A stretch of 64,000 bases of DNA from an uncultured Planctomycetia bacterium (GCA_964373805.1 CAYJWF010000002.1:13861-77860), one strand, 5' to 3'; shown: positions 3,007-32,830, counted from the stretch's first letter. A program made the numbers and translations. The notes: generated by a model from the letters alone, not told the origin.

Positions 3007-3117
3007 AGAAGCGAGAGCGGATACTAACACGATTCATGCAAGTTGATCCGTTCACCCTGAGCAAAGTCGAAGGGTGAACGGGATAGGACACAGAAGTTAA
3101 CACGTTTGTATTAGGCT

Positions 3118-8950: not shown

Positions 8951-10095
8951 GCCGGAGGATTTTCCTGGTCGCCGGGGAATCCTCTGGGGATCTCCACGGC
9001 GGTACCTTAAGTCGCGCCCTCCTTCAACTTCAACCGGATCTCACCCTTTTAGGGATCGGAGGCTCCCAAATGCGGGAAGCCGGGGTGAAGATCCTGGTCG
9101 ATCCGACGCCCCTTGCCGTGGTCGGGTTGGTGGAGGTTTTCCGACATCTTCCTTTCTTTCGGAAACTTTTCCGATCGGCTTGTCAAGCCTTAGACGAACA
9201 TCGACCGGATCTGGTGGTGCTGATCGACTATCCCGGCTTTAACCTCCGATTCGCTCACGAGGTCAAACGCCGAGGCATTCGCCTCGTCTACTACATCTCT
9301 CCCCAGATCTGGGCCTGGGGCCGCGGCCGGATCCACAAGATCAAGCGGCTCGTCGACCGGATGATCGTGGTGTTTCCCTTTGAGAAAGAGCTTTACGAGA
9401 AAGCGGGAGTGCCGGTCACCTTCGTGGGACACCCCCTTCTGGATCTTGCTCACCCGACCTTGTCCCGTTTAGAGGCCTTGGAACGGCTGGGCTTATCCGA
9501 TGGGATGCCGATCATCGGGCTCTTGCCGGGTTCCCGGGAAGTGGAAGTCCGCCGCATCTTGCCGGTCCTGCTCGAAAGCGGTGAGAGGATGCGAGACCGC
9601 CTTCCTTCCACGGCGCAATTCCTTCTCATCAAGGCGCCGCATCTGGCGTGGGAGATTTACAAGACGATCCTGGACCGCTCTTCCCTGAATCCCAAGGTGG
9701 TGGAGCGCTGGGACTACGACGGCATAGCCGCCTGCGACCTGGTCCTGGTCGCCTCCGGCACCGCGACCCTGGAGTGCGCCCTCTTGAACCGCCCCATGCT
9801 GATCGTCTACAAAACCTCCTGGCTCACTTACCTCGCCTCCCGACTCCTCATCCGGATTCCAACCATCGGTCTGGTCAACGTGGTCGCCGGCAGACGAGTC
9901 GTTCCAGAGTTCATTCAGCATCGGGCTACGTCGGAAACCATCGCCACGGCTGCCCTCCAGCTCTGGAGTTCAGCCGGTCAACGAGAAGCGATGCGGGATG
10001 CCTTTTCCCAGATCCGCCGCAGCCTAGCCGAACCCGGCGCCAGCCTTCGCGCCGCCCAAGCCATCCTCTCCGGGTTGGATAGAAAGATGGTATAA
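8947..10095 (+). CDS. lpxB: Lipid-A-disaccharide synthase
   Basis: 382 aa; IFLVAGESSGDLHGG...LLGIGG...LVDYPGFNLR GT19 LpxB signature. Confidence 0.85.
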   Translation: MSRRIFLVAGESSGDLHGGTLSRALLQLQPDLTLLGIGGSQMREAGVKILVDPTPLAVVGLVEVFRHLPFFRKLFRSACQALDEHRPDLVVLIDYPGFNLRFAHEVKRRGIRLVYYISPQIWAWGRGRIHKIKRLVDRMIVVFPFEKELYEKAGVPVTFVGHPLLDLAHPTLSRLEALERLGLSDGMPIIGLLPGSREVEVRRILPVLLESGERMRDRLPSTAQFLLIKAPHLAWEIYKTILDRSSLNPKVVERWDYDGIAACDLVLVASGTATLECALLNRPMLIVYKTSWLTYLASRLLIRIPTIGLVNVVAGRRVVPEFIQHRATSETIATAALQLWSSAGQREAMRDAFSQIRRSLAEPGASLRAAQAILSGLDRKMV

Positions 10096-11749: not shown

Positions 11750-12049
11750 TTAGGAGCCGACGATGTCGAAGAGTCCCTCTACCACGCGGTTGCCCTCTTC
11801 CTCTGGAAGATGGGTTAGCTTGGAACCCAGTCGCTCGGAAGAGAGGGTCCGAATCTGACTGATCTTAATCCAGGAAGGCTTGGGAAGCAGCCGTTCGGGG
11901 GGTTCATACGTTAAGGGAAACCCAGCCCGCTGCGGCCGGCTGGTGATGGCCAGCGCCATCACCGTGCCCGAGTGGGCGTTGAAGGTCTCGTGGCTGATCA
12001 CCACTATCGGCCGGCGGCCCGCCTGTTCTCTGCCACGAGTGGGCTCCAT
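11750..12049 (-). CDS. MazF/PemK-family endoribonuclease toxin; N-terminal strand apparently frameshifted (first 13 codons MARILRGDIYWAD lie in another frame, ORF 11904..12086)
   Basis: EQAGRRPIVVISHETFNAHSGTVMALAITS matches MazF core; upstream frame carries RGDIYWAD, the typical first beta strand, separated by a +1 shift near 12049. Confidence 0.6.
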   Translation of the reverse strand: MEPTRGREQAGRRPIVVISHETFNAHSGTVMALAITSRPQRAGFPLTYEPPERLLPKPSWIKISQIRTLSSERLGSKLTHLPEEEGNRVVEGLFDIVGS

Positions 12050-17350: not shown

Positions 17351-18607
17351 TTAAAAATAGACGTACGCCGCCACCCCCACCGTGTGCTGCGTGGTATCAG
17401 ACCTGAAAGTGTTCCGGCTGGTGAAGAAATTCTCCGAAGTTTTATCGAACCTATACTCCGGTCGAATCAAAAGGTTGAATCCCTTGCCTAAGGCCATCTT
17501 ATAATTCAGTGTCGCCGTCACCCCGTAAAGGGTCTGATCCACGCCGCTGGCAAAGCCGTCCTGGTCGTGGAGGTATTCTAACCGAACAGCCGGCTCCAGA
17601 TGGTCTGTTAGCTGATACCGTACCACGCCGGCCAATCCGTGCCAGACCGCGTTTTGGGTATTGGAGGCCAGCGCATTCTCCTCCAAGCCAACATCTCCAT
17701 ACAACAAGAGGTTCAGCTTTGGAATCGGCGTGTTGAAGAAGGCCTGGAAATCCACGAGGTGCCGGAGGTTATTCTGGATATTCCGCTGCTCCGGACCCAC
17801 CAGATAGTTTAGGTACAAATTAAACCAGGAGCAGGGCAGCCACCCGATGGAAGGTCCTACGGTAATCCCCCGATTATTGTCACCCGTAGTCACGTTCCAA
17901 CCCCGCAGAAGGTACAGCTCCGTATAGAACTTGTCGCTCCAAGGATAATTCAAACGGACCCCCGTGTCTTGGAAGGGGATCGCGTAGCTGTAGAGGAAAC
18001 TTCGAGAATGATTGTTGTTCTTGATCGTCTCAATGGTCTCCCCCCCGATGTGGGTGACGAATTTGCCTGCATCGATTCTTACGCCCTTGCCCACGGGAGC
18101 CACCCAGCCCACCGAGGCATGGGAGATCCATTTGTCGGCGTGGTGAACCACCCCTTCTCCCAAAGCCCCCTGAATCGTGTCGTAGATGATCTCCGGGGTA
18201 TCGCCCCAGTTGACATCCAGTTTGAAACCGGCCCCGCCCCACTCTCCTAAGGTCGGAACCTTCTCCAGCTCCACCTCCACCAAGGAGAGGCCCAACTCAT
18301 CGTTCTGGATGTCGAATGTTCGACCCTCGATGGTGACATTGGTGGCCTTCACCACCGAGGAGCTTTGATTGGCATTCACCGTGCTCCGAGAGGGCTGGTT
18401 GACGTTGTGCACGAAGTGGGTGTCGAGCCACCCGCGGATCTTGATTTTCCTCAACCACTCCAGACCGGTCCACTCACCGGCATCCTTGGTGGCCGCCTCG
18501 GTCCAGATTCCATTGACCTCTGCCGCGTGGGCAAATGGGAATGGAACCACCAAGACGCCGATGATCGCTACGAACAGAAGAAACCTTAGAGAAAATGCTT
18601 GAAACAT
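17351..18607 (-). CDS. Outer-membrane beta-barrel porin (signal peptide, C-terminal aromatic residue)
   Basis: 418 aa, N-terminal signal FLLFVAIIGVLVVPFPFAHA, alternating amphipathic strands, ends ...AAYVYF. Confidence 0.6.
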   Translation of the reverse strand: MFQAFSLRFLLFVAIIGVLVVPFPFAHAAEVNGIWTEAATKDAGEWTGLEWLRKIKIRGWLDTHFVHNVNQPSRSTVNANQSSSVVKATNVTIEGRTFDIQNDELGLSLVEVELEKVPTLGEWGGAGFKLDVNWGDTPEIIYDTIQGALGEGVVHHADKWISHASVGWVAPVGKGVRIDAGKFVTHIGGETIETIKNNNHSRSFLYSYAIPFQDTGVRLNYPWSDKFYTELYLLRGWNVTTGDNNRGITVGPSIGWLPCSWFNLYLNYLVGPEQRNIQNNLRHLVDFQAFFNTPIPKLNLLLYGDVGLEENALASNTQNAVWHGLAGVVRYQLTDHLEPAVRLEYLHDQDGFASGVDQTLYGVTATLNYKMALGKGFNLLIRPEYRFDKTSENFFTSRNTFRSDTTQHTVGVAAYVYF

Positions 18608-18822
18608 CGGGGAGCACCTCCTTTTCTATTTTAAGGTTTGAGGGAGATTTTACGCCAGGACGTTACCGAAAGATAACGGCAACGTTAAATCTTTGTTACG
18701 AGCAGAAGTGAGCGAAGCGAACGCAGCGAGTGGTTTCGTCTCCTTTAACGAAAGCCACGAGCAGCGCCAGCGCCGAAGCTACGAGGTAGGCAGCCGAGTA
18801 GTGAGGCTTCCATTAGCCGAAG

Positions 18823-21378
18823 CTAAGAAACAGGCGCAGGTGCCGGGCCCCGTTCAAAGAGGTACCGTAAAAGATAGAGAGAATCTTCGGGGCCGATTTT
18901 TCCATCCCCATTGACATCCGCCGCCTCCGGGATGGGCGGGGCTGGAATCCGCTGAGCCAGGTAGCTGTTGATGAAGGCTGCGTCCGAGATGTTGACCTCT
19001 CCGTCTGCGTTGGAGTCTCCCCGGATGAAGCCCACCGGGGCGGGCCCGCGTTGAAAGATATAGGCCAACAGGTAACGTACATCGGCTAGGGTGATCCTCA
19101 AGTCCCCGTTTGTATCGGCCGAAGCTGGAGCCGCCAGGGTAGGCTTGCGCCCCATAAGATGGAGCTGGATCCAGACGCAGTCGGTGATGTTGATCCGGCC
19201 ATCCCCGTCCACATCCCCCCGAACATATTCCACCGGGGCCTGTCCGCCCTGGAACAGATAGCGCAACAGGAGCTGAAAGTCGCCTGCCGTAATCTTGCCA
19301 TCTCCATCGACATCGGCGCGGGGAGTGGCCGGTGGGCGCCCTCCACGAAACAGATAGTTCATGATGAAGATGGGATCCGCGATGTTGATCCGCCCATCCC
19401 CATTGGCATCGCCCCGCAGGGGTCCACGAGTGACGTTCCTCACCGTGATGAGAACCGTCTCTTGGGTATCTCCCCCTTTACCATCGCTGGCTTCCAACAA
19501 AACGATCACCGTCCGGATCCCCTCCTTGGGGCTGACAAAAGAAAAGGGAGGGGGCCATTGAAAGGTCCCGGCTCCACTCGCCGGGTCCGCCGTAAAGGTT
19601 GCCCCGATCTTCTCCAACGGATCCCCGTTGGCCAGCCGAGCCGTCAACGTCAGACGATCCCCATCCGGATCGGTGGCCTGTACCGTAAACCGCAAGGTCT
19701 GGCCTTCATCGACCAACTGCCGAGGAATCGGCTGGATTTTCGGGGCAGCATTCGGCCGCGGAGCCAGCGGAAATACGCCCGATCGCTGTGCATCGTGTCG
19801 ATCCTGCGGCCACGGGAGTCGGTCAGGGTCATACCGCCCTGGCAGATGGAAGGCGTTCATGGACTGAGAAACCCCCTGAGGGACAACGATCTCAACGGTT
19901 CCATCTCGATCCAGATCGACGATGGAGGGGGCGGCCATCCAGCGGATAGCGGAGACTCCCAGTAGAACATCTCCGCTCAGTGGAAGAGGAAAACCGTTGA
20001 CCGGACTCCCATCCTCGTGCCAAGCGGCTAAGGTATACTTCACTGAAAGCAGTCCAGCCAGATTAAAGAATTCAGTGGCTAAGATCTCCAACCTCTGATC
20101 CCCATCGATATCCCCCACAATGGGGCCCTCCAAGATCCCCGTTGCACCGATCCCATCGGCTTCCATCTGGACGGGCCAACCGTCACGGACATTCCCCTGC
20201 GGATCGAACACCGTTAGGGTTACATTCTCATCTCTCTGTAGATACCGATGGGCCGACGAGCCAACCACCAACTCCGGCTGTCCATCCCCCTCAAAATCGG
20301 CCAGGGCAATCACCGGAGACCGGCCGGTCGGTCTCGGCCACCCTGGCATCGCTTCTCCATTCCCGCGCAATACGGAAACGAGCCCTATCCTCTCGCTTTC
20401 CGAGGAAACCCCTCCCAGCACAATCTCCATTACGCCATCTTTGTCCAGGTCACCCAGGACGGGTGGCCTTGTAGTAGAGGAAGTCATCCGAGAGACCGGT
20501 TGGTTAAGGAGAACCTTTCCCTGTTGATTGAAAACCACCAAGGAAACGGAAAACGGCCCAGGTGTCAGCTGCCTGGAGACCACCAATACCAGCTCCGGCG
20601 CTTGATCCCCTCGCACATTTCCTATGGCTACCCCATGACCTGTAAAAAGGTCATCCCCTGGGATCATCACCGGCCATCCAGCCAGGGGGGTACCGGAGGC
20701 GTCCCATACATAGACGAAGACGCCGTTTTCTCCAGCCGGACGAAACCGCGTCGAGGTGACCACGACAACCTCCAGGTCACCATCGCCATCGACATCCGCG
20801 AGGGTTTGATACGGTGGAGGAAATCGATCGGATCGGTCCAACCGGATGGGCCAGCCAGGCAACAGAGTTCCATCCTGCCTCCAGGCATGAACCGCCGAAG
20901 TTATGATCTGGGGAGACTCCTCTCGCCAAAAAGCGGTCTGCACAATCTCCAACCGTCCATCCCCGTCCAAGTCGCCCAACAAAGGGGAGGAATCGGTCAG
21001 GGCGTTTAACCCAAAGCCAAGGGGGGTTCCGTCGATCGGTTGAGGCCACCCCGGATGCGGCTGACCGTCCCATCGGTAGACCGCTACGACTGGCCTGCCG
21101 AATGGCTGCGGCGGGAAGATTTCTGGCGGGAAGCCCTCTGCGATATTGCCCTCCACCACAACCTCCGGATAACCGTCCCCATCCAGGTCGGCAATCGTTG
21201 GAGAATTTCTCACCCAAGGATGCTGGATCTGGCCCCCCTGTTGGATCGTCACCCGCACCGGCCAGCCGGGAAGCTGCTCCGGCGGCTCCGCGGCAAAAGC
21301 TGGAGTTAAGAACGAAAGAGTCCCAAGAAACAACCCTAGAGCGAAACTTCTCTTCTCGATGATCGCGGTCCGCTTCAC
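18823..21378 (-). CDS. Secreted FG-GAP/VCBS beta-propeller protein with cadherin-like Ig domain and six C-terminal type-I dockerin-like Ca-binding repeats
   Basis: Signal peptide; seven DxDxDGxxE blades (DLDGDGYPEVVV, GDLDGDGRLEIV, ADVDGDGDLEVVVV ...); six DxNxDGxIxxxD repeats each followed by LxYLF (GDANGDGRINIADPIFIMNYLF ... ADVNGDGKIGPEDSLYLLRYLF). Confidence 0.7.
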   Translation of the reverse strand: MKRTAIIEKRSFALGLFLGTLSFLTPAFAAEPPEQLPGWPVRVTIQQGGQIQHPWVRNSPTIADLDGDGYPEVVVEGNIAEGFPPEIFPPQPFGRPVVAVYRWDGQPHPGWPQPIDGTPLGFGLNALTDSSPLLGDLDGDGRLEIVQTAFWREESPQIITSAVHAWRQDGTLLPGWPIRLDRSDRFPPPYQTLADVDGDGDLEVVVVTSTRFRPAGENGVFVYVWDASGTPLAGWPVMIPGDDLFTGHGVAIGNVRGDQAPELVLVVSRQLTPGPFSVSLVVFNQQGKVLLNQPVSRMTSSTTRPPVLGDLDKDGVMEIVLGGVSSESERIGLVSVLRGNGEAMPGWPRPTGRSPVIALADFEGDGQPELVVGSSAHRYLQRDENVTLTVFDPQGNVRDGWPVQMEADGIGATGILEGPIVGDIDGDQRLEILATEFFNLAGLLSVKYTLAAWHEDGSPVNGFPLPLSGDVLLGVSAIRWMAAPSIVDLDRDGTVEIVVPQGVSQSMNAFHLPGRYDPDRLPWPQDRHDAQRSGVFPLAPRPNAAPKIQPIPRQLVDEGQTLRFTVQATDPDGDRLTLTARLANGDPLEKIGATFTADPASGAGTFQWPPPFSFVSPKEGIRTVIVLLEASDGKGGDTQETVLITVRNVTRGPLRGDANGDGRINIADPIFIMNYLFRGGRPPATPRADVDGDGKITAGDFQLLLRYLFQGGQAPVEYVRGDVDGDGRINITDCVWIQLHLMGRKPTLAAPASADTNGDLRITLADVRYLLAYIFQRGPAPVGFIRGDSNADGEVNISDAAFINSYLAQRIPAPPIPEAADVNGDGKIGPEDSLYLLRYLFERGPAPAPVS

Positions 21379-21522
21379 TGGTTTTCTCCTCTTTTCATGG
21401 GTGGCTGCGATGTAAACCTTTGTAAGTGGGATTTACTCTTATACTCTTCTTTAAGTGGCCCGATGCTACTCTATTTTAATATGGATGTCAAATAAATAAT
21501 AAAACCGGCTGGATAGGGAGAT

Positions 21523-22347
21523 CTAGGCGTAGTGCCGAAGCAGGCTCTTTACCTTAGGAAACTTCAAATGCTCAAGCTCATTTGGATCCAGCACGAAACG
21601 CTCCAGTTCCAAGCGCACCGCTTTCCAATCCACTGCTTCGAGTTCATCCTCCACCCACCCGGGAAACTCTCGCTCCTTAATCTCACTCCCACCTCCCTGC
21701 GTCTGGCGAATGGCGTTGTTGAGCAGTTTCAGGTTGGGCATGACACCCCGCCCCAGATACCAGACCAGATCGTAAACATCCCTTCCCTTCCGGTAGCGAC
21801 GAAAGAACAAGGCGTGGAGCTTCAGCGCGAAAAGCGAAGGCAGATCAAAGACGGTCACCGCGTAAGAAATGGGGGTCGTCACCAGCTCCACCTCGGTCTT
21901 TCCTCCCTTAGGGGGACGGGTGTCGATCTCCCACTTGAGCGTGAGTTTCTGCTCCGGCAGGTCCGAGAGATTGAACTCCTTCAATAAACCGGGGAATCGG
22001 CAATCGGCCGTCCGGACCGTCTTCTCTTTCCGGGGATAAACCTCGCATCCCAGCCCTTGAAGCTTAAGATCCTTGGCTACCTTCTCAAGGAGGGTCTGAA
22101 ACTCAAACCCTTCCGAATGGAGGAGGGAAAAATCCAGATCCTCCGAATAGCGATTCGTCCGATACAGCAGCCTCAAGGCGGTCCCACCGGTAAAGACAAG
22201 GTTTTGAAAGGCTCCATGACGGGACAGGCTCTGCAGCGTGAGATGTTGGAGGATCTCCGCGAGGGCCAGACGCTTCAAGTGAGGCTGAGGAACCCGGTCC
22301 AACTCTCGACGGATCAGATCCTTCAACGCAGCACCTCCTGGATCCAC
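21523..22347 (-). CDS. AbiEii/AbiGii-family nucleotidyltransferase toxin (type IV TA / abortive infection)
   Basis: 274 aa with FTGGTALRLLYRTNRYSEDLDF motif diagnostic of DUF1814/AbiEii. Confidence 0.75.
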   Translation of the reverse strand: MDPGGAALKDLIRRELDRVPQPHLKRLALAEILQHLTLQSLSRHGAFQNLVFTGGTALRLLYRTNRYSEDLDFSLLHSEGFEFQTLLEKVAKDLKLQGLGCEVYPRKEKTVRTADCRFPGLLKEFNLSDLPEQKLTLKWEIDTRPPKGGKTEVELVTTPISYAVTVFDLPSLFALKLHALFFRRYRKGRDVYDLVWYLGRGVMPNLKLLNNAIRQTQGGGSEIKEREFPGWVEDELEAVDWKAVRLELERFVLDPNELEHLKFPKVKSLLRHYA

Positions 22348-22952
22348 CGCCTGACCACGGAGATCAACCTTTGGGATCCGAATCGCTCTGCACAGGCCCT
22401 GACCTTCTGGGGATCCAGCCCCTCACAATTCTGAAAACGATAAGACTCTTTGAACACCGCCCCCTCCATAGCTGAAAGTCGGGAGAGATTTAAATACAGA
22501 AAGTCAACCACCGCCTTCTCCGGTGTAGCCACCAGAATGGAAAGCCCTCCCGCCGCCGAGATCGACTCGAACCCTCCGTAACCGGCCGGAAGCAGATGCT
22601 GATAAATAAAGATCCCAAACTCATTCTCGAAACGACAGGTCTTCCGGGGGGTGATCGACGTTGTCGCCGCGACAAACTCGGGGATCATCCCATGATACGC
22701 CAAGGCGGACTCCAGGCTCACATAGGACGGCAGATAGATCTGATTGGCGAGGTAAAAGCGAGACGGCTCCACCTGCCGATCCTCGTCATTAAGGACATAG
22801 AGCCCCTTGCGCAACGGCCGGATAAGCCCCTTCTTTTTCCAACCCGCCAGTTGGACCCGAAGCGTTCCCACCTGGTCCGTCAGAGAAACCAGCATGCTGG
22901 ACGAAAAGAGGGGGTACCTCCTCATCTTCCGACGAAACTCGTTGTATTTCAT
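22323..22952 (-). CDS. AbiEi-family antitoxin/transcriptional regulator
   Basis: 209 aa; YVSLESALAYHGMIPE core of AbiEi; overlaps abiEii by 25 nt in the canonical order. Confidence 0.7.
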   Translation of the reverse strand: MKYNEFRRKMRRYPLFSSSMLVSLTDQVGTLRVQLAGWKKKGLIRPLRKGLYVLNDEDRQVEPSRFYLANQIYLPSYVSLESALAYHGMIPEFVAATTSITPRKTCRFENEFGIFIYQHLLPAGYGGFESISAAGGLSILVATPEKAVVDFLYLNLSRLSAMEGAVFKESYRFQNCEGLDPQKVRACAERFGSQRLISVVRRWIQEVLR

Positions 22953-23045
22953 TTCATTATACTTTTCTATAATCTACAGAAATGATACCATCCCCGGCCT
23001 TCTTCATCAAGCGCTCTTAGCACACGCAGATTATTTCGTGGGTTT

Positions 23046-26000
23046 CTATCCCAATCCGTCCGGGGTGGGATCGGCGCCGGGATTCGGATACGGCGGGACC
23101 GGCGGTGGGCCGCCTTTGAATAGGTGGCTCACCAAACGGAGAGCATCCGTGACATCGATCCATCCGTTATCATCGACATCGCAGGGATCTAAGGAAGGGA
23201 CCTTCTGCCCCCGGTACAGATAAAGCAGGATCGTCACCACATCGGAGATGTCCACCCGACCATCCCCATTGGCATCGCCGCGGATAAACGACGGTTGGGC
23301 AGTCACTGTAACCGTTACTTCTTCGGTATCGCTGAAGTCGCTCGGATCCATGACCCGGAAGAAGAAGGTGTTGGTGCCCACCTGGTCTGCCCCCGGCATC
23401 CATCGGAGAATTTTCGTCAACGTACCGGGCTCGGAACGGACCGTTTCCAAGCTTGCCCCTCTAGGTAGTGGGGAAGGACGTGTCGCCAACACCAATGGAT
23501 CTCCATCCGGATCGGTGGCGGAAATGGGGAATTGGAGCGTCTCCCCAACACGAGCCGTTCTAGAACCGATCGGCTCTAGAACGGGTGAACGACTAGAAGG
23601 CCCGAACTCAGACACGTAGACCTGTCCCGTCAAAGTCATCCGGCTACTCACACCTATCCAGGCCACTCGATTACCGGAAAGGGAAGGCGCTGCATTAATC
23701 TCAAACAACGAAGAGATAACCCGGTGCGTCTCCCCTGTCGTCAAATCCTGGAGGAACGTAAGAGGAGGGATTCGGAATTGACCCCAAAAATCTTCCCAGA
23801 CCACCTGATTCCCTGCAACATCCGGACGGATCTGGGTAGCCGGGTGAGAGGTAAGCTGCCGTTCCCTCCCAGTTCGCAAGTCGTAGAGAAAAAGATCAGC
23901 GGGATCAGGATCAAGCGCATCCTGTTCCCGGTGATCCTCGTAGATGATCCAGTCACCCCAGATCACTGGTCTAACCTGGTCAGACGGATGGTCGGTAATC
24001 CGACGTTCCGTATCGGTAGACAGATCGTAGAGGTAAACGTCGACGTTTCCGCCTTCCGCATGAGAATAAACGATTCGGTCGCCGGACACCCCAACCTGAG
24101 GCCGCGGGTTTGCGAAGCCTGGATCCTCAAAGACAGGTTTCTGCAGACGCTCCCTGAACGTGGTTAAATCGTAGACCTCTAGAATGTGATCGACTGTCAC
24201 ATAAACGAGCCAATGACCAGACATAACAGGAGGCGAATCAAAGGGTAGATTCCCTGCGATTCCTCCCTGATTCACGATGCGCTCCTGCTTGGTGTTGAGG
24301 TTGAATAGATGAATCCTGCTTTGCTGGCCTAACCAAACAATCCAATCTCGCCAGATGGTTGGAGGCGATAACCAAGTGAGATCGGAGGAGATTGACCGCT
24401 TTGTGTCGGTAGGTAGGTCATAGAGATAAAGATGGTTCGAGGTGGGGTCTCTATCCCCTGTGGTTTCTTCCCCCCAAACGATCCGGTCTCCTGAGATCGA
24501 AGGCCCCCACTTCTGTTGGGGGCCGTCCGTAAGCCGTCTGGGGGTAACCCATTCCAAGTAGTACTGCGCTACCTCTTGGAACCGTTGTCCACTTGATGTC
24601 GTAACTGAAAGGAGAACCAAGCTAGGGCCATCCGGTAGATCTCCGATCAGCCAATTTCCCAACACCCCATCCACCACGGGGGTAAACACCGGGCCCCCCA
24701 TCGATCGCCACGGTCCTACGGGGATATCGGTCTGATAGAGCAACTCATACTGCTGAAACCCGGGTCCTGCCGCTGTTCCGGTAACCATTACGGAGCGATC
24801 CCGTCGGCTGAGGATCGCCTTATCTTGCGGGCTGGTGAGGTATACCTGTGGGACCGAATCGATCGTCAGGGCCCGAGCAGCGTTAACGCGTCCAAATCCG
24901 GTCTCCCAATCAAAGCCTGGGGTCCCTACATCATCCGCAGAAATCTGCAATACCCGTCGAACCTCTTCATTGGAAAACTCGGGATGCCTGGACAAGACCA
25001 ACGCGCACACACCGGCCACATGGGGAGCCGCCATGCTGGTCCCTCGAGCCCTGTAATAGGATCCCCCTACCACCATCCTGCCCGCAAAGGCTGGACCACA
25101 ACTTTCCCGATAAATATCGGTTCCCATAGCGCGGAGGGACAGAATCGATGGGGTCACTTCCGAACAACCACCTCCTGACTCACCCCCCGGAGCTGCTACA
25201 TCGATCTCTGCTCCTAGGTTAGAGAAACTGCTCCTCTGATCCAAGTGGTCCAGGGATGCCACCGAGATGACCTCGGATGCGTTCTGGGGACTGAAGGCAG
25301 CTACATCGTCCCGACTATTTCCACCCGCAAATACCAATACCAAGCCGTTGGCGTAGGCCAGACGTATAGCTTCCATAACGAGCGGATTCTCTGGGCACCG
25401 ACCCATACATCCCCAACTGTTGTTGATCACATCCGCTACCCCGTGGTTCACGGGGTAGCGGATACCCTGTGCCAGAACACTGGAAGTGGAGATGCCACGA
25501 TCATCTAGTACCTTAACCGGCATAACCTTTGCCCGGGGCGCCACCCCAACGACCCCGATCCCATTGTTAGCTACTGCAGCAATCGTACCGGCTACATGGG
25601 TCCCGTGTCCATTAAGGTCCATGGGATCCTTATCCCCGTAAATCACATCCCAACCAAACATGTGATCACCAATCTCATTCCATTCCACCTGCCTGTTGCC
25701 ATTAAGATCTACATCGTCCAGATCAACGACTCCATCCCCATTGCGATCCGGAACGATCCCAGGATCCACCCAGACGTTCTTCCAGATGTCCGGATGGTTA
25801 TAGTCCAAGCCGGTATCGACGACAGCCACCACGATCCCTTCCCCTTGGGAAATCTTCCAAGCTTCGTCGGCTTTGATCTTCTTTAATCCCCACAGATCCC
25901 CGTACTCTTGGCCCCAGGCCCCGGTTGACCAGACCCCATCTTGATCTGGATCGACATACGTATCGTTGGGAAGGGTATCCGGGAAGGCTTGGATCTTCAT

Positions 26001-26651
26001 AATGTAGTCTGGCTGAGCGTATTCTACTGCCGGATCATCTTGATAGGTACGCACCATCGATGGGATATCGGTCGATTCATCCACCTTAAGGAGATACGTC
26101 CCATCCAAAGAGGGAACCACCGCATCCTTCGGGGCACGCTTCTGCCGACGCTCTAAGCGGGCTATGAGTCCTTCCTGGCCTTTAATCCGGGAATCCAACT
26201 CCGCTTTCTCCTTCTCGATCCGAGTCTGGTATTCCTTGGATTCTGGGGAATCCTTATCCTTCCACCAGTACCAGCTCGGATGCTCCTGACCCTCCAGACC
26301 TGCTCGCTTCTTCTTTAACTCCTGCAACCGTTCCTGGGCGGTCGGCTCCTTCGGAAAAACCTCTGTCACCGAGCTCACACCAAATCGCTGATTCAACGGC
26401 TCGATCGCCGAAAGGTCGTACCCTTCCTTGACCTTGACGATGATCTGACCAGGGGCATAGGTAGGAGCTGTCGGCCTGCCCTCCTCTACTTCCTGATGGG
26501 AATCAGGTTCCCCCTCTACCCCGCCAAAGGCAGAAGGCTGACAAAGGATGAGGGAAAAAACCAAAGAAACGGCTAGGGCTGTGTGCTTATGGCCCATTGC
26601 CAAAATGCGATCCCCCTTTGTCGCCATGGTACTTCTATAAACCCGATTCAC
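23046..26651 (-). CDS. Secreted subtilisin-like serine protease (S8) with N-terminal I9 propeptide, beta-propeller, cadherin-like Ig domain and C-terminal dockerin-like repeat
   Basis: Catalytic triad motifs VAVVDTGLDYNHPD, HGTHVAGTIAA, GTSMAAPHVAG; repeated DRIVW/LYDL blades; C-terminal GDANGDGRVDISDVVTILLYLY...DVDDNGWIDVTDALRLVSHLF. Confidence 0.85.
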   Translation of the reverse strand: MNRVYRSTMATKGDRILAMGHKHTALAVSLVFSLILCQPSAFGGVEGEPDSHQEVEEGRPTAPTYAPGQIIVKVKEGYDLSAIEPLNQRFGVSSVTEVFPKEPTAQERLQELKKKRAGLEGQEHPSWYWWKDKDSPESKEYQTRIEKEKAELDSRIKGQEGLIARLERRQKRAPKDAVVPSLDGTYLLKVDESTDIPSMVRTYQDDPAVEYAQPDYIMKIQAFPDTLPNDTYVDPDQDGVWSTGAWGQEYGDLWGLKKIKADEAWKISQGEGIVVAVVDTGLDYNHPDIWKNVWVDPGIVPDRNGDGVVDLDDVDLNGNRQVEWNEIGDHMFGWDVIYGDKDPMDLNGHGTHVAGTIAAVANNGIGVVGVAPRAKVMPVKVLDDRGISTSSVLAQGIRYPVNHGVADVINNSWGCMGRCPENPLVMEAIRLAYANGLVLVFAGGNSRDDVAAFSPQNASEVISVASLDHLDQRSSFSNLGAEIDVAAPGGESGGGCSEVTPSILSLRAMGTDIYRESCGPAFAGRMVVGGSYYRARGTSMAAPHVAGVCALVLSRHPEFSNEEVRRVLQISADDVGTPGFDWETGFGRVNAARALTIDSVPQVYLTSPQDKAILSRRDRSVMVTGTAAGPGFQQYELLYQTDIPVGPWRSMGGPVFTPVVDGVLGNWLIGDLPDGPSLVLLSVTTSSGQRFQEVAQYYLEWVTPRRLTDGPQQKWGPSISGDRIVWGEETTGDRDPTSNHLYLYDLPTDTKRSISSDLTWLSPPTIWRDWIVWLGQQSRIHLFNLNTKQERIVNQGGIAGNLPFDSPPVMSGHWLVYVTVDHILEVYDLTTFRERLQKPVFEDPGFANPRPQVGVSGDRIVYSHAEGGNVDVYLYDLSTDTERRITDHPSDQVRPVIWGDWIIYEDHREQDALDPDPADLFLYDLRTGRERQLTSHPATQIRPDVAGNQVVWEDFWGQFRIPPLTFLQDLTTGETHRVISSLFEINAAPSLSGNRVAWIGVSSRMTLTGQVYVSEFGPSSRSPVLEPIGSRTARVGETLQFPISATDPDGDPLVLATRPSPLPRGASLETVRSEPGTLTKILRWMPGADQVGTNTFFFRVMDPSDFSDTEEVTVTVTAQPSFIRGDANGDGRVDISDVVTILLYLYRGQKVPSLDPCDVDDNGWIDVTDALRLVSHLFKGGPPPVPPYPNPGADPTPDGLG
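23059..23097 (-). repeat. 39-bp segment at 3' end of S8 protease gene (encodes PPYPNPGADPTPD), duplicated at 27881..27919
   Basis: 38/39 identical to 27881..27919. Confidence 0.7.
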
Positions 26652-26705
26652 CCGATTTTATTCCAGGATTATCCTTGAAAAGTGGCAGGTCGACTTTAGA
26701 CCCCT

Positions 26706-26939
26706 TTAACCCAAAAGCTGACGGAGATCTTTGGCTGTCAACTGCACACCGCGTAAGATGGCTCGGAGGGTTCCTGGTTTGATTGGCTTCGAACCGTGGA
26801 GGATAATCGTTGCCCGGCGGGATAGGTCTCCCTTATGTCTCATGAGCACGTGAGACCCTCGTTGACGGAGAACGATAAAACCGGCTTTCTCAAGAGCACG
26901 AACAACTCGCTGGCCAGGAACTTGTGGGAGGTCGCTCAC
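26706..26939 (-). CDS. hicA: HicA-family mRNA interferase toxin
   Basis: 77 aa; GFIVLRQRGSHVLMRHK...GTLRAILRG typical HicA. Confidence 0.7.
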   Translation of the reverse strand: MSDLPQVPGQRVVRALEKAGFIVLRQRGSHVLMRHKGDLSRRATIILHGSKPIKPGTLRAILRGVQLTAKDLRQLLG

Positions 26940-27175
26940 GCAGCGACACGAACCTCCCGCAGGAAGACATCGGACGATGGGATCGGTTGATGGTCTGCCT
27001 CTAATCCTCCCAGGTAGAGAACGATGGCCTCTTTAATGTTAGCAAGGGCTTCTTTCTCGGTTTCCCCTTGACTGGCACAGCCAGGAAGTGCCGGTACATA
27101 GACCGAAAAACCGCCTTCCGACTCTGTCTGAAAGACCACACCGAATCGCCGAATCACGGATTTCACCTCCTTCAT
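26936..27175 (-). CDS. hicB: HicB-family antitoxin
   Basis: 79 aa; FSVYVPALPGCASQGETEKEALANIKEAIVLYL (HicB/UPF0150 fold); overlaps hicA by 4 nt. Confidence 0.7.
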   Translation of the reverse strand: MKEVKSVIRRFGVVFQTESEGGFSVYVPALPGCASQGETEKEALANIKEAIVLYLGGLEADHQPIPSSDVFLREVRVAA

Positions 27176-27356
27176 TACAGTTTACCACAGACAAACCCAT
27201 CAGGAGGTCTGTTGACACAAAGATTGCCTCGGTCCCGCTTCGGCTAAAGCCTCGCGGTCCCTCGCAATGACTTAAAGGGGCTACAGCGAGTCGAGGAATT
27301 GGGTGCCTTTCGTTAAAGGACGGTGGACAAACTTCTCTAGGTTCCTGGAACCTTTT

Positions 27357-27530
27357 TTAGAATCCAACTCGCAAAGCGCTGGGCAGTCTCGCAGCACGCA
27401 TGGGCCTCCTCTGCTGAGGGCAATGCTCCAACTGCTGGATACCGTTCAATCGCCGAGCTGCTCGATGGGGATCCTGCTGCGCTTTCTGCAGCCACTCGGC
27501 AGGATAACCGGAAGGCTTACGACTTGGCAT
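27357..27530 (-). pseudogene. HEPN-domain toxin remnant (57 codons, truncated/frameshifted) downstream of MNT gene
   Basis: ATG overlapping MNT 3' end; encodes PAEWLQKAQQD...LNGIQQLEHCPQQRRPMRAARL resembling PF05168 HEPN N-terminus (AEWLxKAxxDL...FHAQQAAEKALKALL) then stops; a second frame continues with EEAHACCETAQRFASWILKK. Confidence 0.35.
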
Positions 27531-27843
27531 AGAGAACTTTACCGGACTGCAAAATATCCATCAGGAACTGGTCGCCTAAGGCCAGACGCCGGCTAAGTTC
27601 TTGAGGGGTCAGCACGATCGGATCAAAGGGGATACCTCGCCTTAAAGGCGAGACGAGCTGGCGGACGGTCGCCAACCGCTGATGAAACGTCTGCGGCGTC
27701 CGTTTGACGATCAAAAGGTCGATGTCGCTTTCAGCCTTTTGCCGACCCGTGGCAAACGAGCCAAACAGAACGATCCGTTCCGGCTGATAACGGGTCTTTA
27801 AAACCTCCCGAATGCGCTGTATCACTCGCTTGGACTTATTCAT
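27517..27843 (-). CDS. Minimal nucleotidyltransferase (MNT) antitoxin of HEPN/MNT module
   Basis: 108 aa; IVLFGSFATGRQKAESDIDLLIV (GS...DxD polymerase-beta-like NTase motif). Confidence 0.7.
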   Translation of the reverse strand: MNKSKRVIQRIREVLKTRYQPERIVLFGSFATGRQKAESDIDLLIVKRTPQTFHQRLATVRQLVSPLRRGIPFDPIVLTPQELSRRLALGDQFLMDILQSGKVLYAKS

Positions 27844-27880
27844 GCTACCTTCTATTTTACCACAAGCTTAATTGAGGTTA

Positions 27881-27919
27881 TCCGGCGTGGGATCGGCGCC
27901 GGGATTCGGATACGGCGGG
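27881..27919 (-). repeat. Orphan 3' fragment of a dockerin-type gene (…PPYPNPGADPTPDNLN*) duplicating the S8 protease 3' end
   Basis: 38/39 nt identity to 23059..23097; open only ~17 codons (TGA immediately upstream). Confidence 0.7.
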
Positions 27920-27924
27920 GCTGG

Positions 27925-27950
27925 GGGTCAGACCCCGAGGGGTCTGACCC
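27925..27950 (-). terminator. GC-rich hairpin GGGTCAGACC-CCGAGG-GGTCTGACCC downstream of response-regulator gene
   Basis: 10-bp perfect stem; T-run only on the plus-strand side, so terminator function for the minus-strand gene is uncertain. Confidence 0.3.
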
Positions 27951-27958
27951 TTTATAAT

Positions 27959-28633
27959 TTACAGGGATTCGAGGAACTTGTAGCCGACGTTGCGGACGGT
28001 GTCGATGAGGCTGGCGTACTTGGGGCCCAGTTTGGCCCGGAGGCGGCGGATGTGGACATCCACGGTCCTCGTACCCCCTATGAAGTCGTAGTCCCAGACC
28101 TGGTTAAGGAGCTGATCGCGGCTGAAGACCCGGGTGGGGTGGGTGGCCAGGAATTTCAAGAGCTCAAACTCCTTGTAGGTGAGCTCCAACGGTTCGTCTT
28201 TTAAGGTCACCTCGTATTGATCGACGTCCAATCGGAGATCCCCAATCTCAATGCCGGTCCCTGGGGCAGCGTGATTGAGGCGCTTCAGCACAAACCGAAT
28301 TCGAGTCTCCAACAGCTCTGGATCCGCTGGACCTACGAGGAAATCCTCCAACCCGCTGATCGATGGAAGCTCCCTAAGATGATCTGGCTTCAAGAGGACC
28401 AAAAGTGGCAGATCTTTCGCCGGTGGTTGGCTCCGCAGCCGAGCCACCAGCTCCGCCAATCGGCCAACGGCTGTCGCATCGAGAAGCCCAAAGTTGAACC
28501 GGTCCTTGACCTCTTCCAGCCGGTCCAATTCGTCAACGGAAAAGGCGCTCACCCGAAAACCTCGCCGAACCAGGTAGCTCTTCAGCCGCTTTAAGCCGGC
28601 CTCCTCAGAACCGATCAACAGTAAGGTTTCCAT
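27959..28633 (-). CDS. OmpR/PhoB-family winged-helix response regulator with atypical receiver domain; orphan (no kinase adjacent)
   Basis: C-terminal wHTH LTYKEFELLKFLATHPTRVFSRDQLLNQVWDY...TVDVHIRRLRAKL; receiver lacks the usual N-terminal DD acidic pair (LLLIGSEE). Confidence 0.7.
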   Translation of the reverse strand: METLLLIGSEEAGLKRLKSYLVRRGFRVSAFSVDELDRLEEVKDRFNFGLLDATAVGRLAELVARLRSQPPAKDLPLLVLLKPDHLRELPSISGLEDFLVGPADPELLETRIRFVLKRLNHAAPGTGIEIGDLRLDVDQYEVTLKDEPLELTYKEFELLKFLATHPTRVFSRDQLLNQVWDYDFIGGTRTVDVHIRRLRAKLGPKYASLIDTVRNVGYKFLESL

Positions 28634-28653
28634 AGCGGATCAGCGCTCGTTCG

Positions 28654-30363
28654 TTAAAGGGATTTCTCCGTGTACCGGTTGGTGATCGGCATCCGCCGAT
28701 CCTTGCCAAAAGCCCTAGGGGTTATTTTAATCCCAATCGGGGCCTGCCGGCGCTTATATTCGTTTAAGTCGATCATTCGAAGGACACGGTCTGTCTCACG
28801 AGGAGGGCTTTTAAGCCTCCGTCGGATCTCCGAGGCAGTTTGATTCTCCTCAACGTAGGCCTTGACGATGGAATCCAGCCGATCGTACGGAGGCAACGTA
28901 TCCTGATCCCGTTGGTTCGGCCTCAACTCCGCGGTGGGAGGCCGCCGGAAAACCGATTCCGGGATCACCGGCTTGCCAAAGATTCGGTTGGCGGTCCGAC
29001 CCAAACGATAGACCCAGGTCTTAGGCAGATCTTTAATCACCGCGAATCCCCCCACCATGTCGCCGTAAAGGGTGCAGTAACCGGTGGAAAGTTCCGACTT
29101 GTTCCCGGTGGCCAAGGCCAGCCAATGGAACTTGTTGGCGAGGGCCATCAAGAGAGTTCCCCGAATCCGGGCTTGGAGATTTTCCTCGGTGACGTCGACC
29201 GGTCGATCCCTAAAGACCGGTTTCAAGGTAGCGAGAACCGTTTGGAACATCCGCTCGATGGGAATTTCCAAAAACGGGATTCCGAGATTCAACGCCACGG
29301 CCTTGGCATCGGCTTGGGTCTCATTGGAAGAGTAACGGGAAGGCATGGAGACCCCGGTGACCGCTTCCTTTCCTAACGCGGCGACGGCGACGGCCGCGGT
29401 CAGGGCCGAGTCGATTCCTCCGCTTAGGCCGATCACCACGTGGGAGAAACCGTTTTTCCGAACGTAATCCCGGGTGCCTAAGACCAGGGCTTGAAAGACC
29501 TCTGCATCGGAATCCAGAACCGTCAAAACGGTGTCTGACACCTCGCGGCTGCGAGAAGCGGTGCCAGACACTTTGAGAGGAACTTCCACGAGAAACAAGC
29601 CCTCTTGAAATTGGGGAGCCCGAAATACGATCCTCCCCGAAGGGCTGGCGACCAGGCTTCCCCCATCGAAAACCAACTCATCCTGGCCACCGACTAAGTT
29701 GACGTAAACCACCCAACTCTTACACCGACCGGCCCAATCCTGGATAAGCCGCTCCCGTTCCCGGAGCTTGCCGGCATGGTACGGCGAGGCCGACAGGTTG
29801 ACCAGGATCTGAGCCCCCGCCTTCGCCTCGGCCAAGGGAGGCCCGGTTTTAACCCAGATATCCTCACAGATCGACACTCCAATAAGAACGGTACCAGGTA
29901 CATTTTTCGCGAAACTTTTATAAAGTTGAGCCGTTTTTGTACCTGGTACCATTTCTACGACAAGTGGATCGCCACCCGGGGTGAAGTACCGCTTCTCATC
30001 GAACACCCCGTAGTTGGGGAGCATCATCTTGTGGTAACCCGCCGCCCTGCGGCCGTTGGACAAGACGGCGGCCGCGTTGTACAGCGAGCCCTTCTGGTCT
30101 CTATCGACAAAACCAACGAGCGCCGTGATCCCTCGGGTTAAGGGGACCAACTTTTTCAGTGAGGCCAAATTCCCTCGGATAAAGGCCGGGTTAAACAAAA
30201 GGTCCTCCGGCGGATAGCCGGTCAAGGCCAATTCTGGAAAGACCACGAGATCCGCCGCCTGTTGTTTCGCTTGGGCGAGAAAACAAGCGATTTTCGTGCG
30301 GTTCCCATTTAAGTCCCCGACGGTCACGTTGATCTGGGCCAAGGCAATCCTCAACTTCCTCAT
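28654..30363 (-). CDS. nadE: Glutamine-dependent NAD+ synthetase (N-terminal nitrilase/CN-hydrolase domain + NadE domain)
   Basis: 569 aa; LRIALAQINVTVGDLNGN (CN hydrolase), SGGIDSAL P-loop of NAD synthetase. Confidence 0.9.
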   Translation of the reverse strand: MRKLRIALAQINVTVGDLNGNRTKIACFLAQAKQQAADLVVFPELALTGYPPEDLLFNPAFIRGNLASLKKLVPLTRGITALVGFVDRDQKGSLYNAAAVLSNGRRAAGYHKMMLPNYGVFDEKRYFTPGGDPLVVEMVPGTKTAQLYKSFAKNVPGTVLIGVSICEDIWVKTGPPLAEAKAGAQILVNLSASPYHAGKLRERERLIQDWAGRCKSWVVYVNLVGGQDELVFDGGSLVASPSGRIVFRAPQFQEGLFLVEVPLKVSGTASRSREVSDTVLTVLDSDAEVFQALVLGTRDYVRKNGFSHVVIGLSGGIDSALTAAVAVAALGKEAVTGVSMPSRYSSNETQADAKAVALNLGIPFLEIPIERMFQTVLATLKPVFRDRPVDVTEENLQARIRGTLLMALANKFHWLALATGNKSELSTGYCTLYGDMVGGFAVIKDLPKTWVYRLGRTANRIFGKPVIPESVFRRPPTAELRPNQRDQDTLPPYDRLDSIVKAYVEENQTASEIRRRLKSPPRETDRVLRMIDLNEYKRRQAPIGIKITPRAFGKDRRMPITNRYTEKSL

Positions 30364-31198: not shown

Positions 31199-31471
31199 TC
31201 ATCCCTAGTTACTTAGCCTTCCTTCGGAAAGGGGGGTGTGTTGGGGCGTGCTGAGGAAACGGACGATCCCCCCATGGGAATTTCCCCCCAACGAGACCGA
31301 TTGCTTTTGCCTGCCTGCGCCGAGCAACGCGAGGCAGGCAGGCCGGATGGGGGAGTACGGAGGGGGAAACCAGGCAGTGGTTTCCCCCTCCGAGAGGCTG
31401 GGCGACTAACGATGGTGGCCACTCCACCGAAGCCGGGAGGCACACGATAACCGATGGATTCATCCCTAGTT
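31199..31471. repeat. Structured intergenic element (~260 bp) flanked by 12-bp direct repeats TCATCCCTAGTT (31199..31210 and 31460..31471), containing GC-rich hairpins; MITE-like or structured RNA
   Basis: Direct repeats seen; internal palindromes GCCTGCCTGC(N15)GCAGGCAGGC at 31309..31343 and GGAAACCA-GGCAG-TGGTTTCC at 31365..31385; sits between lpxC-fabZ stop and lpxI start. Confidence 0.5.
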
Positions 31472-31480
31472 GCCCAGCCT

Positions 31481-32830
31481 CTAAAGCTTCCCGTCCCCTT
31501 CCAACAAGGCAAACATGAGATCCCCCTCCGCCACGACCTTCTCCTCCACCAGGGCCCGGGTCCGCATCTGGCCGGTTTTGGAGCGAAGCTTCAGCACCTC
31601 CGCCTCCAGGCGAAGGGTGTCCCCGGGTAAGACGGTCCGCCGAAACTTGACGTTATCCATCGCCACAAAATAGGCGTACTTGCCCAGATTCTCCGGCTTA
31701 TTCAACAAGAGGATGCCCGACACCTGGGCGAGGGCCTCGATGATCATCACCCCCGGCATCACCGGACGCTTGGGGAAATGACCGGCAAAGAACGGCTCGT
31801 TGATGGTCACGTTCTTCAACCCCACCGCCCGCTGATCGGGAACCAACTCGACGATCCGATCCACCAAAAGAAACGGATAGCGGTGGGGGAGAATCCGCTC
31901 AATGGCGAAGATGTCGAGGGCGGTCGCCTCCGGTTCGACGAACTGCGCCTGGATCCCCCCTTCCCTGCCGCGCTCCAACGTTTGCCGGAGCTTCTGAACG
32001 AGCCGTAGGTTCAACGCATGGCCGGAACGGATGGCGATCACATGCGCTTGAAGGGGCCGGCCCAGAAGGTACAGATCCCCAATGAGATCGAGGACCTTGT
32101 GTCGGACGAACTCATCTGGAAAACGCAAGCGGTTGTTGATCACCCGCCCCTCGGCATCGACCACCACGGTGTTCTCGTAATTGGCTCCCCGGCCCAACCC
32201 GATGCGACGCAGCGCCTCCACCTCCTGGGCAAGACAAAAGGTTCGGGAAGGGGCCAGCTCCGTTTCCAAGAATGGAGAGGTCAAGTTCGCCGAAAAAAAC
32301 TGGGCCTTTAAACCGGGGATGGGATAGCTCAACGTGTAGGAAACGCGAAAGGCTTCGTCGGGCAACACCGCTACGATGGCCGAGTCCTCCTCGATCCAAA
32401 CCGGCTCCCGCACCGGGATCACCTGACGCGGAGCCTCCTGTTCCTGGAAACCAGCCTGCCGAAGGAGCTCCACAAAGGGATAGGCCGATCCATCGAGTCC
32501 CGGGACCTCTTCACCATTTAACTCCACGAGAAGGTTATCCACCCCGGAAGCGTAACAGCCGGCCATGAGGTGTTCGATGGTATGAACCTCAACGGCCCCC
32601 TGGCCGATCGAGGTCCGCCGAGGCCGACGAGAGGCGTCGAGGATGTTGGTGATCGAGGCGGCCACAGGCTGGGAACCGGCCAAGTCGGTCCGAATAAAAG
32701 CGATCCCATTGTCGGACGGAGCTGGCTTAAACTCCACTTGGGAACGCCGCCCGGAATGAAGGCCCACCCCTTCTACCCGGGCCGGCCGACGGATGGTGCG
32801 CTGTCGACTAAGGGGGGCCTTGTCTTCCAA
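31481..32830 (-). CDS. lpxC-fabZ: Bifunctional UDP-3-O-acyl-GlcNAc deacetylase / 3-hydroxyacyl-ACP dehydratase (LpxC-FabZ fusion)
   Basis: N-terminal LpxC (TIRRPARVEGVGLHSGRRSQVEFKPA...HTIEHLMAG) and C-terminal FabZ hotdog (ILPHRYPFLLVDRIVEL...EPFFAGHFP..PVMPGVMIIEALAQ). Confidence 0.85.
   Translation of the reverse strand: MEDKAPLSRQRTIRRPARVEGVGLHSGRRSQVEFKPAPSDNGIAFIRTDLAGSQPVAASITNILDASRRPRRTSIGQGAVEVHTIEHLMAGCYASGVDNLLVELNGEEVPGLDGSAYPFVELLRQAGFQEQEAPRQVIPVREPVWIEEDSAIVAVLPDEAFRVSYTLSYPIPGLKAQFFSANLTSPFLETELAPSRTFCLAQEVEALRRIGLGRGANYENTVVVDAEGRVINNRLRFPDEFVRHKVLDLIGDLYLLGRPLQAHVIAIRSGHALNLRLVQKLRQTLERGREGGIQAQFVEPEATALDIFAIERILPHRYPFLLVDRIVELVPDQRAVGLKNVTINEPFFAGHFPKRPVMPGVMIIEALAQVSGILLLNKPENLGKYAYFVAMDNVKFRRTVLPGDTLRLEAEVLKLRSKTGQMRTRALVEEKVVAEGDLMFALLEGDGKL

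Follow-up and report, generated by a model that had tools for sequence, protein, structure and literature searches.

The 64-kb window analysed here (CAYJWF010000002.1:13861-77860) carries an intact gene for an S8 subtilase with a C-terminal dockerin and, 1.2 kb upstream of it, a short second copy of an S8 gene end that lies directly behind an OmpR-type response-regulator (RR) gene. All coordinates refer to the whole window, and all genes and gene fragments discussed are on the minus strand. Read along that strand, the order is RR, hairpin, tail B, MNT, broken HEPN, RR-tail relic, hicB, hicA, S8, tail A, AbiE, an FG-GAP/dockerin gene, a conserved intergenic sequence and a porin gene, tails A and B being the two copies of the gene end.

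A search of the window with the 39-nt sequence, allowing up to three mismatches, returned two sites, 23059-23097 (copy A, no mismatch) and 27881-27919 (copy B, one mismatch), and no match in 100 dinucleotide-preserving shuffles, so that none would be expected by chance. The near-perfect 39-bp duplication of the original prediction, at 38/39 identity, is thereby borne out. The sole mismatch is a synonymous change in a Thr codon, ACC versus ACG. Repeat-finder extension lengthens the pair to 48 nt at 92% identity without gaps (23059-23106 and 27881-27928), within which the perfect core spans 33 nt (23065-23097 = 27887-27919). Identity drops at once 3′ of the repeat, where the last four codons agree at 3 of 12 nt (GGA TTG GGA TAG versus AAC CTC AAT TAA), and tapers on the 5′ side (6/9 nt). 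The core matches at 33/33 positions, as against 77-87% over the same 39 nt when the window is compared with orthologue contigs L090 or L091 (described below), and the next 12 nt match at 3/12. This contrast points to recent common descent or a short gene-conversion tract as the probable source of the core, and a recent duplication would fit the pattern equally well.

Copy A is the true end of a 1,201-residue open reading frame (ORF), its translation closing in KGGPPPVPPYPNPGADPTPDGLG and the ORF as a whole in FKGGPPPVPPYPNPGADPTPDGLG (asterisks denote stop codons). The gene (23046-26651) encodes, by Pfam, a Fervidolysin-type N-terminal prodomain, Peptidase_S8, a Big_9/He_PIG Ig domain and a C-terminal Dockerin_1 (residues 1125-1177), and the D/H/S motifs are present in the translation. 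The protein was found on one 109-kb NCBI contig only (P0001), its next relative being 43% identical. Copy B (27868-27927) reads G V * P P A P P Y P N P G A D P T P D N L N * in translation, that is G-V-TGA-PPAPPYPNPGADPTPDNLN-TAA, with the in-frame TGA at 27928-27930 and the TAA at 27868-27870. It amounts to 19 codons, PPAPPYPNPGADPTPDNLN, plus the stop, has neither start codon nor gene body, and is preceded within 32 nt by a hairpin and the RR stop codon. The orphan dockerin-gene end behind an in-frame TGA is thus present as had been described.

Both tails belong to a widespread family. A word-index protein search with the 49-residue tail gave no matches, and an exhaustive HMMER search of cluster representatives was used instead. 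With the last 85 residues as query it recovered 29,392 representatives carrying the module, thousands of which align from position 5 to position 85, through the tail to the end of the query. The best of these matches yield the tail consensus GG.PP.P(Y/F)P..G.DPT.D.LGC. Since both DPTPDGLG* and DPTPDNLN* fit this consensus, they are real ends of a dockerin-like module and no chance ORF ends. Within the window, a six-frame motif search for further tails, as the original prediction had proposed, found no third one in any frame.

The stranded S8 gene end

The last 250 residues of the S8 protein retrieved two homologues, P0176 and P0270, which are short but more similar to it. The first is encoded on the 859-nt contig L090 and terminates in GGRPPAPPYPDPGSDPSPDNLH*. 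Over 455 nt, L090 DNA is 74.7% identical to the S8 gene of the window, and the match stops exactly at 23059, the 3′ edge of copy A. The last 67 nt of L090 match copy B instead (27929-27863, 88%), including the last four codons, the TAA and the next 5 nt, GCTTG; the sequence beyond the copy B stop, TAAGCTTG, likewise matches S8 orthologue ends. P0270 is found on L091 and L092, and L091 behaves in the same way, with 80% identity to copy B (27928-27878) and a match to the intact gene that also stops at 23059. A distant orthologue on L059 (P0002, 43% identical) ends in DNLN*; its neighbours are unrelated (LptFG on one side, Alr on the other) and it contributed the tail sequence only. DNL(N/H/*) is hence the ending of three S8 orthologues and is shared by copy B, whereas the window gene ends in DGLG*. 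Moreover, A and B differ at three positions close to the repeat edges, and at each of them B agrees with orthologues: GCC (L090), ACG (L091) and GAT (L059, L090 and L091).

The surroundings of copy B agree with its sequence. In L091 and L092 the order is RR end (90% amino acid identity), S8, MNT (75%), an intact 131-residue HEPN gene, an RR-tail repeat, the conserved intergenic sequence and the porin. The RR-tail repeat in L091 comprises the last 53 nt of RR, stop codon included, 51 of which are identical. The S8 gene of L091/L092 is itself internally deleted, its prodomain fused to Big_9 and dockerin, with the tail PPAAPYPDPGVDPTRDNL*. Given this layout, the ancestral order is RR, S8, MNT, HEPN, in a block bounded by a duplicated RR end. 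Copy B has kept the ancestral S8 end, still joined to its ancestral neighbour MNT, with only the body in front of it gone. Its homology to the 3′ ends of the orthologues takes in their stop codon and 3′ untranslated region, it lacks a start and a body, and its neighbourhood is conserved. We therefore consider it very probable that copy B is the relic of an S8 gene at its ancestral position. The synteny comparison that had been suggested as a check thus supports the proposal that an ancestral dockerin gene downstream of RR lost its body, with the amendment that the lost gene was an S8 orthologue of the intact gene 1.2 kb away and not just any paralogue. Nor is MNT/HEPN, although it lies between the copies, an insert there: L091 and L092 place the pair as the ancestral downstream neighbour of the S8 end.

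Copy B is about 84-88% identical to L090 in the shared region, on a par with the intact gene, and its frame is still open, whereas the RR-tail relic further downstream is heavily decayed. This difference suggests that the proximal S8 body was lost much later than the island arose; alternatively, conversion from copy A may have kept the relic fresh.

By the same comparison, it is the annotated end of the intact protease that departs from the ancestral state. Its last four codons and stop (23046-23060, DGLG*) differ from those of the S8 orthologues, as does its 3′ flank; DPTPDGLG* runs on into AAACCCACG. The 3′ end is therefore chimeric, with GLG* and the 3′ flank as its non-ancestral part. DGLG still conforms to the dockerin consensus D.LG, so the likeliest donor of this end is another dockerin gene, through a crossover in the conserved DPTxD stretch that would also have brought in the AbiE module behind it. 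Recombination between paralogous dockerin genes, which had been offered to explain the orphan, does not account for copy B and may instead explain this chimeric end.

The relic has no coding function. Beyond the adjacent hairpin, no ORF or structure was detected at it, and Rfam gave no family in 18000-29000. In the window and in L091 alike, the S8 stop is followed by an extended -10-like element, TGGTAWAAT, some 10-45 nt ahead of the MNT start. In the window it reads TGTGGTAAAAT and lies 5 nt after the TAA (region 27844-27867); in L091 it reads GATGGTATAAT, a few nt after the TGA (L091 1213-1265). TGGTAAAAT, at about 27850, precedes the MNT start and is a candidate promoter element for MNT/HEPN. 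The relic has probably been kept since it lies directly upstream of this putative extended -10 of the MNT/HEPN operon, as its -35/UP region, and such a position could explain why deletion of the gene body spared it.

An island behind the response-regulator gene

The RR gene (27959-28633) matches Trans_reg_C in Pfam, and its orthologues share 61-78% amino acid identity over the whole protein, or 87-96% in partial C-terminal matches, with conserved synteny. Only the OmpR-type DNA-binding domain is matched; Pfam gave no receiver-domain match over the N-terminal ~140 residues, so that the receiver may be atypical or degenerate. The loci around the NadE and RR orthologues come from metagenome-assembled genomes (MAGs) of Candidatus Omnitrophota from groundwater or sediment, the best NadE match in the species-representative genome set being 69% identical. 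In 10 relatives (L003, L062, L066, L068, L070, L071, L072, L073, L075 and L076) RR is followed within ~110-600 nt by an orthologue of the BBP2 porin, and amt-glnB-glnA comes next after the porin in 10 relatives, as in the window. Given this RR-porin adjacency, the segment at ~18700-27958 (9.3 kb) is an insertion, or variable island, relative to the common arrangement.

Similarity among the relatives stops right at the RR stop codon, and what follows differs from genome to genome. Other cargo at the site includes a Big_9/FG-GAP protein (L015), an AAA/DUF4143 ATPase (L064), a Fic gene (L001), a GspE-type secretion cluster (L002 and L089) and two S8 prodomain fragments (L063). The latter are Fervidolysin_NPro-like, stand in tandem (L063 4106-4708 and 4737-5186) and lie between RR and a GspE-like gene. 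In L001 a single Fic/DOC gene forms a 1.05-kb insert after RR, enclosed by 39-nt direct repeats of the RR end (8643-8681 and 9796-9834) of which 30 nt are perfect. The first repeat copy ends in EEI*, while the second retains the native ESL* and the native downstream sequence; L002 (~3040-3065) represents the empty site. The RR 3′ end is thus duplicated in L091/L092 and in L001, and its last ~40-53 nt are the island insertion point in this lineage. As judged from these loci, the site after RR is a recurrent hotspot of insertion and decay in a family of Omnitrophota, at which S8 genes have repeatedly been gained and eroded.

In the window, the original prediction had placed the S8 gene, hicAB and an MNT/HEPN pair between the two copies. 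Pfam confirms S8, HicA, HicB and MNT, and HEPN turns out to be a frameshifted remnant. The MNT-type nucleotidyltransferase, the antitoxin of the pair, is intact (27517-27843; Pfam Polbeta / NTP_transf_2) and shares 75% amino acid identity with that of L091/L092. The HEPN pseudogene (27337-27530) joins codons 1-28 out of frame to codons ~95-128: tblastn with the intact 131-residue HEPN of L091 aligns two pieces in different frames, ~200 nt having been lost internally at a junction near 27447-27450, and neither piece has a Pfam match. Directly after the HEPN remnant comes a decayed copy of the RR 3′ end (27281-27330, ACCGTCC...ATTCCTCGACTCGCTGTAG), placed like the 53-nt repeat in L091. Over 19 nt it is still 95% identical to the L091 RR tail, and a few bases after the HEPN stop are L091-like as well. 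Next are hicB (26936-27175, HicB_lk_antitox) and hicA (26706-26939, HicA_toxin), which separate the RR-tail relic from the intact S8 gene. From B to A, the window hence shows the L091 unit (RR-tail, S8, tail, MNT, HEPN, RR-tail) in circularly permuted order, with hicAB between RR-tail and S8.

Downstream of S8 lie an AbiEi-like gene (22323-22952), assigned by position only as it has no Pfam match, and an AbiEii gene (21523-22347, Pfam AbiEii). The last cargo gene (18823-21378) encodes, by Pfam, an 851-residue FG-GAP / Big_9 protein with three dockerin modules, which ends without a DPTxD-type tail. The distal edge of the ~9.3-kb island is marked by a conserved intergenic sequence (18658-18702, minus strand, TAACAAAGATTTAACG) that follows RR or the duplicated RR tail in relatives; L091 2055-2096 is 90% identical to window 18699-18658. 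The BBP2 porin gene (17351-18607, Pfam BBP2) stands just past it. No further RR-tail copy was found at the distal edge. The GC content of the island is 53-56%, against 56-60% in the flanks, a weak signal. No island ORF, and none of the other window ORFs scanned, matched a recombinase family, and a search of viral contigs found no relative of the MNT or S8 protein. The inserts of L091 and L001 hold no genes other than S8 fragments, MNT and HEPN, or Fic.

On its 5′ side the relic is bounded by a perfect palindrome, GGGTCAGACCCC-GA-GGGGTCTGACCC (27925-27950, no strand assigned; 12+12 nt), 8 nt after the RR stop. Each half, GGGTCAGACCCC and GGGGTCTGACCC, is itself palindromic around one base. A terminator-like scan gives the hairpin a 13-pair stem, and the RNA fold of 27835-27965 has an energy of -43 kcal/mol (z = -3.7). 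The palindrome was not found after RR in the relatives, and it does occur in intergenic sequence of L072 (19442-19478), L073 (7507-7558) and L022 (9131-9156). It looks like a lineage-typical element resembling a repetitive extragenic palindrome (REP) or a terminator. A derivation of its 3′ arm from ancestral GGRPP codons was considered and rejected, because the palindrome recurs at unrelated intergenic spots of relatives.

Several further features of the window were recorded. The spacer between the RR-tail relic and hicB (27176-27280, GTCATTGCGAGGGACCGCGAGGC...GCGGGACCGAGGCAATC) contains an internal direct repeat and resembles short repeat elements common in groundwater MAGs (compare the L080 ORF 'MDSRFRGNDN'). 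An 18-nt inverted repeat (94%) pairs 18741-18758, at the distal edge, with 27303-27320, in the middle of the RR-tail relic, its sequence being the small hairpin CCTTT-AACG-AAAGG. Outside the island, 1087-1776 encodes a Gp49/HigB-like domain fused to, or run together with, an HTH domain, and 11750-12049 a PemK/MazF toxin, in a window segment rich in toxin-antitoxin-type modules. A 3,114-residue ORF (36921-46265) adjoins the BamA gene (34479-36908) and may represent the very long surface proteins that have been discussed for Omnitrophota. The spacer from lpxI to lpxC/fabZ holds direct repeats (31199-31219 and 31460-31480, 86%) and inverted repeats (31393-31414 and 31461-31482, 86%); a 99-residue ORF with no Pfam match overlaps this spacer (31199-31482), which may form a structured element.

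History of the locus and rival explanations

The relic and its surroundings can be accommodated in the following history. S8, MNT and HEPN would initially have formed a small integrase-less island at the RR 3′ end, bounded by a duplicated RR tail. A second S8 copy would then have landed distal to the RR-tail copy, behind hicAB. Unequal exchange between direct repeats can give a tandem copy of the island that they flank, and such an island can also loop out and re-enter. One route for the second copy would accordingly be tandem duplication of the island, or its excision and re-entry, through the flanking RR-tail repeats; the other would be that a second, related island was added at that site, as is described for the accretion of cis-mobilizable elements (CIMEs) and incoming elements (PMC5704250). 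The proximal S8 body would subsequently have been lost by a deletion that began just behind RR and ended ~60 nt short of the S8 stop, joining copy B to the hairpin, and the end of the surviving gene would have been replaced from DPTxD onward by a foreign dockerin tail, GLG*, with the AbiE module. That copy B is a stranded S8 end in a rearranged, integrase-less island, left by a two-copy route followed by decay, is the account we favour, with appreciable reserve. The preference for two copies over a single relocation is its most tentative part, to which we attach slightly less than even credence.

Several observations weigh against this history. No close relative (>90% identity) was found, and intermediates with two S8 genes or a tandem island were not observed. 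The sequence after the RR stop shows no similarity to that after the RR-tail relic; a simple tandem duplication would predict such similarity, unless it was later overwritten. L091 and L092 are probably two assemblies of one groundwater sample and hence count as a single witness. The 5′ edge of copy B overlaps the hairpin by a few G/C-rich bases, which leaves the exact junction uncertain. As for retention of the relic as a promoter region, a consensus scan found no sigma-70 site there, the motif having been seen by eye and the consensus perhaps not being that of Omnitrophota.

A single S8 gene would suffice if its body had been relocated 1.2 kb downstream, past MNT/HEPN and hicAB, by a template switch or copy-and-paste event that duplicated an overlap of 39-48 nt. 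Copies A and B do act as the halves of one ancestral sequence sharing such an overlap, with the core at 33/33, orthologue homology to A ending at its 3′ edge and homology to B beginning at its 5′ edge. Relocation nevertheless leaves unexplained the RR-tail copy between the two positions, which the junction of a duplicated or circularised unit would supply, and the fact that copy A has a family-typical dockerin tail (D-x-L-G) and not random sequence. No mechanism-specific footprint is visible either, and we regard this explanation as improbable. Still less probable is a source of the orphan in some non-S8 paralogous dockerin gene, the 39-nt identity then being the footprint of gene conversion or a crossover. 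Such genes would be easy to come by, given the 29,392 cluster representatives with the dockerin-plus-tail module and another multi-dockerin gene in the same island, and a perfect core between diverged homologous flanks has the look of a conversion tract. The flanks of copy B (PPA..., ...DNLN* and TAAGCTTG after the stop), however, match S8 orthologue ends specifically, and in L091/L092 it is S8 that occupies exactly this position before MNT; moreover, the 851-residue dockerin protein of the island has no tail and the window no third one.

The remaining two explanations concern the repeat pair as such, and both seem to us very improbable. If the 39-mers were the attachment sites attL and attR of a 4.8-kb element (MNT/HEPN, hicAB and S8) moved by a site-specific recombinase, they would resemble the 30-53-nt direct repeats of a gene 3′ end that flank the inserts at RR in L091 and L001, as in islands that integrate into gene ends, and elements that keep att sites while lacking an integrase, the CIMEs, are known (PMC5704250). 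The orientation is wrong, however: the orphan lies upstream with the S8 body between the repeats, so that excision would take the gene and leave the tail. Furthermore, the junction between B and MNT is ancestral and no element end, and no recombinase was seen in the island or the other window ORFs scanned. For the RR-tail repeats of L091 and L001, an att-like or short-homology reading remains attractive. An assembly artefact, in which the contig was mis-joined or cycles in the assembly graph through a short repeat shared by co-occurring strains, deserves thought because the source is a metagenome-assembled contig (P0001) and related populations with different cargo at the site co-occur in at least one groundwater sample. 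Against it, the copies differ and their 33-nt perfect core is below the final k-mers of usual assemblers; the B-MNT junction is seen independently in L091/L092; and the RR-tail relic is too diverged from RR's own tail to collapse in a graph. The junction of hairpin and B involves no repeat, and an orphan next to RR would stand even if the repeat path were wrong.

A broader and more speculative idea, which we consider unlikely, is that integrase-less cassettes of 1-5 kb (Fic, MNT/HEPN, S8) move as circles, entering and leaving through 30-53 nt of gene-3′-end homology. If it were true, each move would leave a duplicated gene end, and the RR-tail repeats of L091 and L001, the RR-tail relic and the S8-tail repeat would be its footprints; the circularly permuted unit of the window would then be a direct record of excision and re-entry. 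Were the short repeats of gene ends shown to be sites of recombination, they could serve to detect small mobile cassettes by simple means in uncultured phyla, in places that lack a nearby integrase.

Independently of the route, the relic is a functionless scar, of interest as a marker: it points to a site at which S8-dockerin proteases, and toxin-antitoxin or Fic modules, are gained, duplicated and eroded. An annotation should enter 27868-27927 as a pseudogene fragment and HEPN as a pseudogene with an orphan MNT partner.

Comparison with known systems

The tails belong with the dockerin type I-like module that carries a DPTxDxLGC extension in Planctomycetota-like and Omnitrophota secreted proteins: both fit the extension, and the S8 C terminus matches Dockerin_1. 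Dockerin-bearing secreted proteins have been described as typical of Omnitrophota (bioRxiv 10.1101/2023.11.21.568195). Unlike the full module, the relic holds the extension only, its calcium-binding repeats being gone.

Two kinds of element were tried for the repeat pair and rejected. Transposon target-site duplications are exact and 2-15 bp long, whereas this repeat is 39-48 nt and imperfect; the 4.8-kb segment has no terminal inverted repeats, and Pfam detected no transposase. Integron cassettes (attC) are not supported, since no integrase was found, the 39-mer has no extended dyad symmetry (the fold shows the separate hairpin only) and Rfam gave no match.

The island as a whole recalls CIMEs and accretion of the ICESt1 type (PMC5704250). 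Cargo lies directly after a gene, and direct repeats of the gene end, 39-53 nt long, are present in L091 and L001 and decayed in the window. As at att sites, these repeats of the RR tail flank an insert, and empty sites exist in L002 and the ten RR-porin relatives. There is no integrase inside, the cargo differs per genome, and the window has a two-block tandem split by an internal repeat copy. The differences are that no integrase or conjugation gene was seen at any locus, that the units are small (1.15-4.8 kb) and that the S8-tail repeat does not have att geometry. Short-homology (Campbell-type) recombination would leave the same footprints as site-specific recombination.

Short-tract gene conversion would leave a perfect core, such as the one of 33 nt here, with diverged homologous sequence on both sides. 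Here, however, one partner is a 60-nt relic, and a recent duplication with altered junctions explains the same pattern.

The closest parallel is with gene relics. Such relics are fragments that remain after deletion, and bacterial tandem duplications are remodelled by internal deletions. Copy B shares with them a short 3′ fragment homologous to a functional orthologue, the missing start codon and a conserved neighbour, and other decayed genes accompany it at the locus: the broken HEPN here, the deleted S8 in L091 and the prodomain fragments in L063. It differs in that an intact copy stands 1.2 kb away, shares the perfect 33-nt core and carries the altered terminal codons. A gene relic in a decaying island at a conserved hotspot is hence a known kind of thing, the product of ordinary genome decay, met here in a poorly studied phylum.

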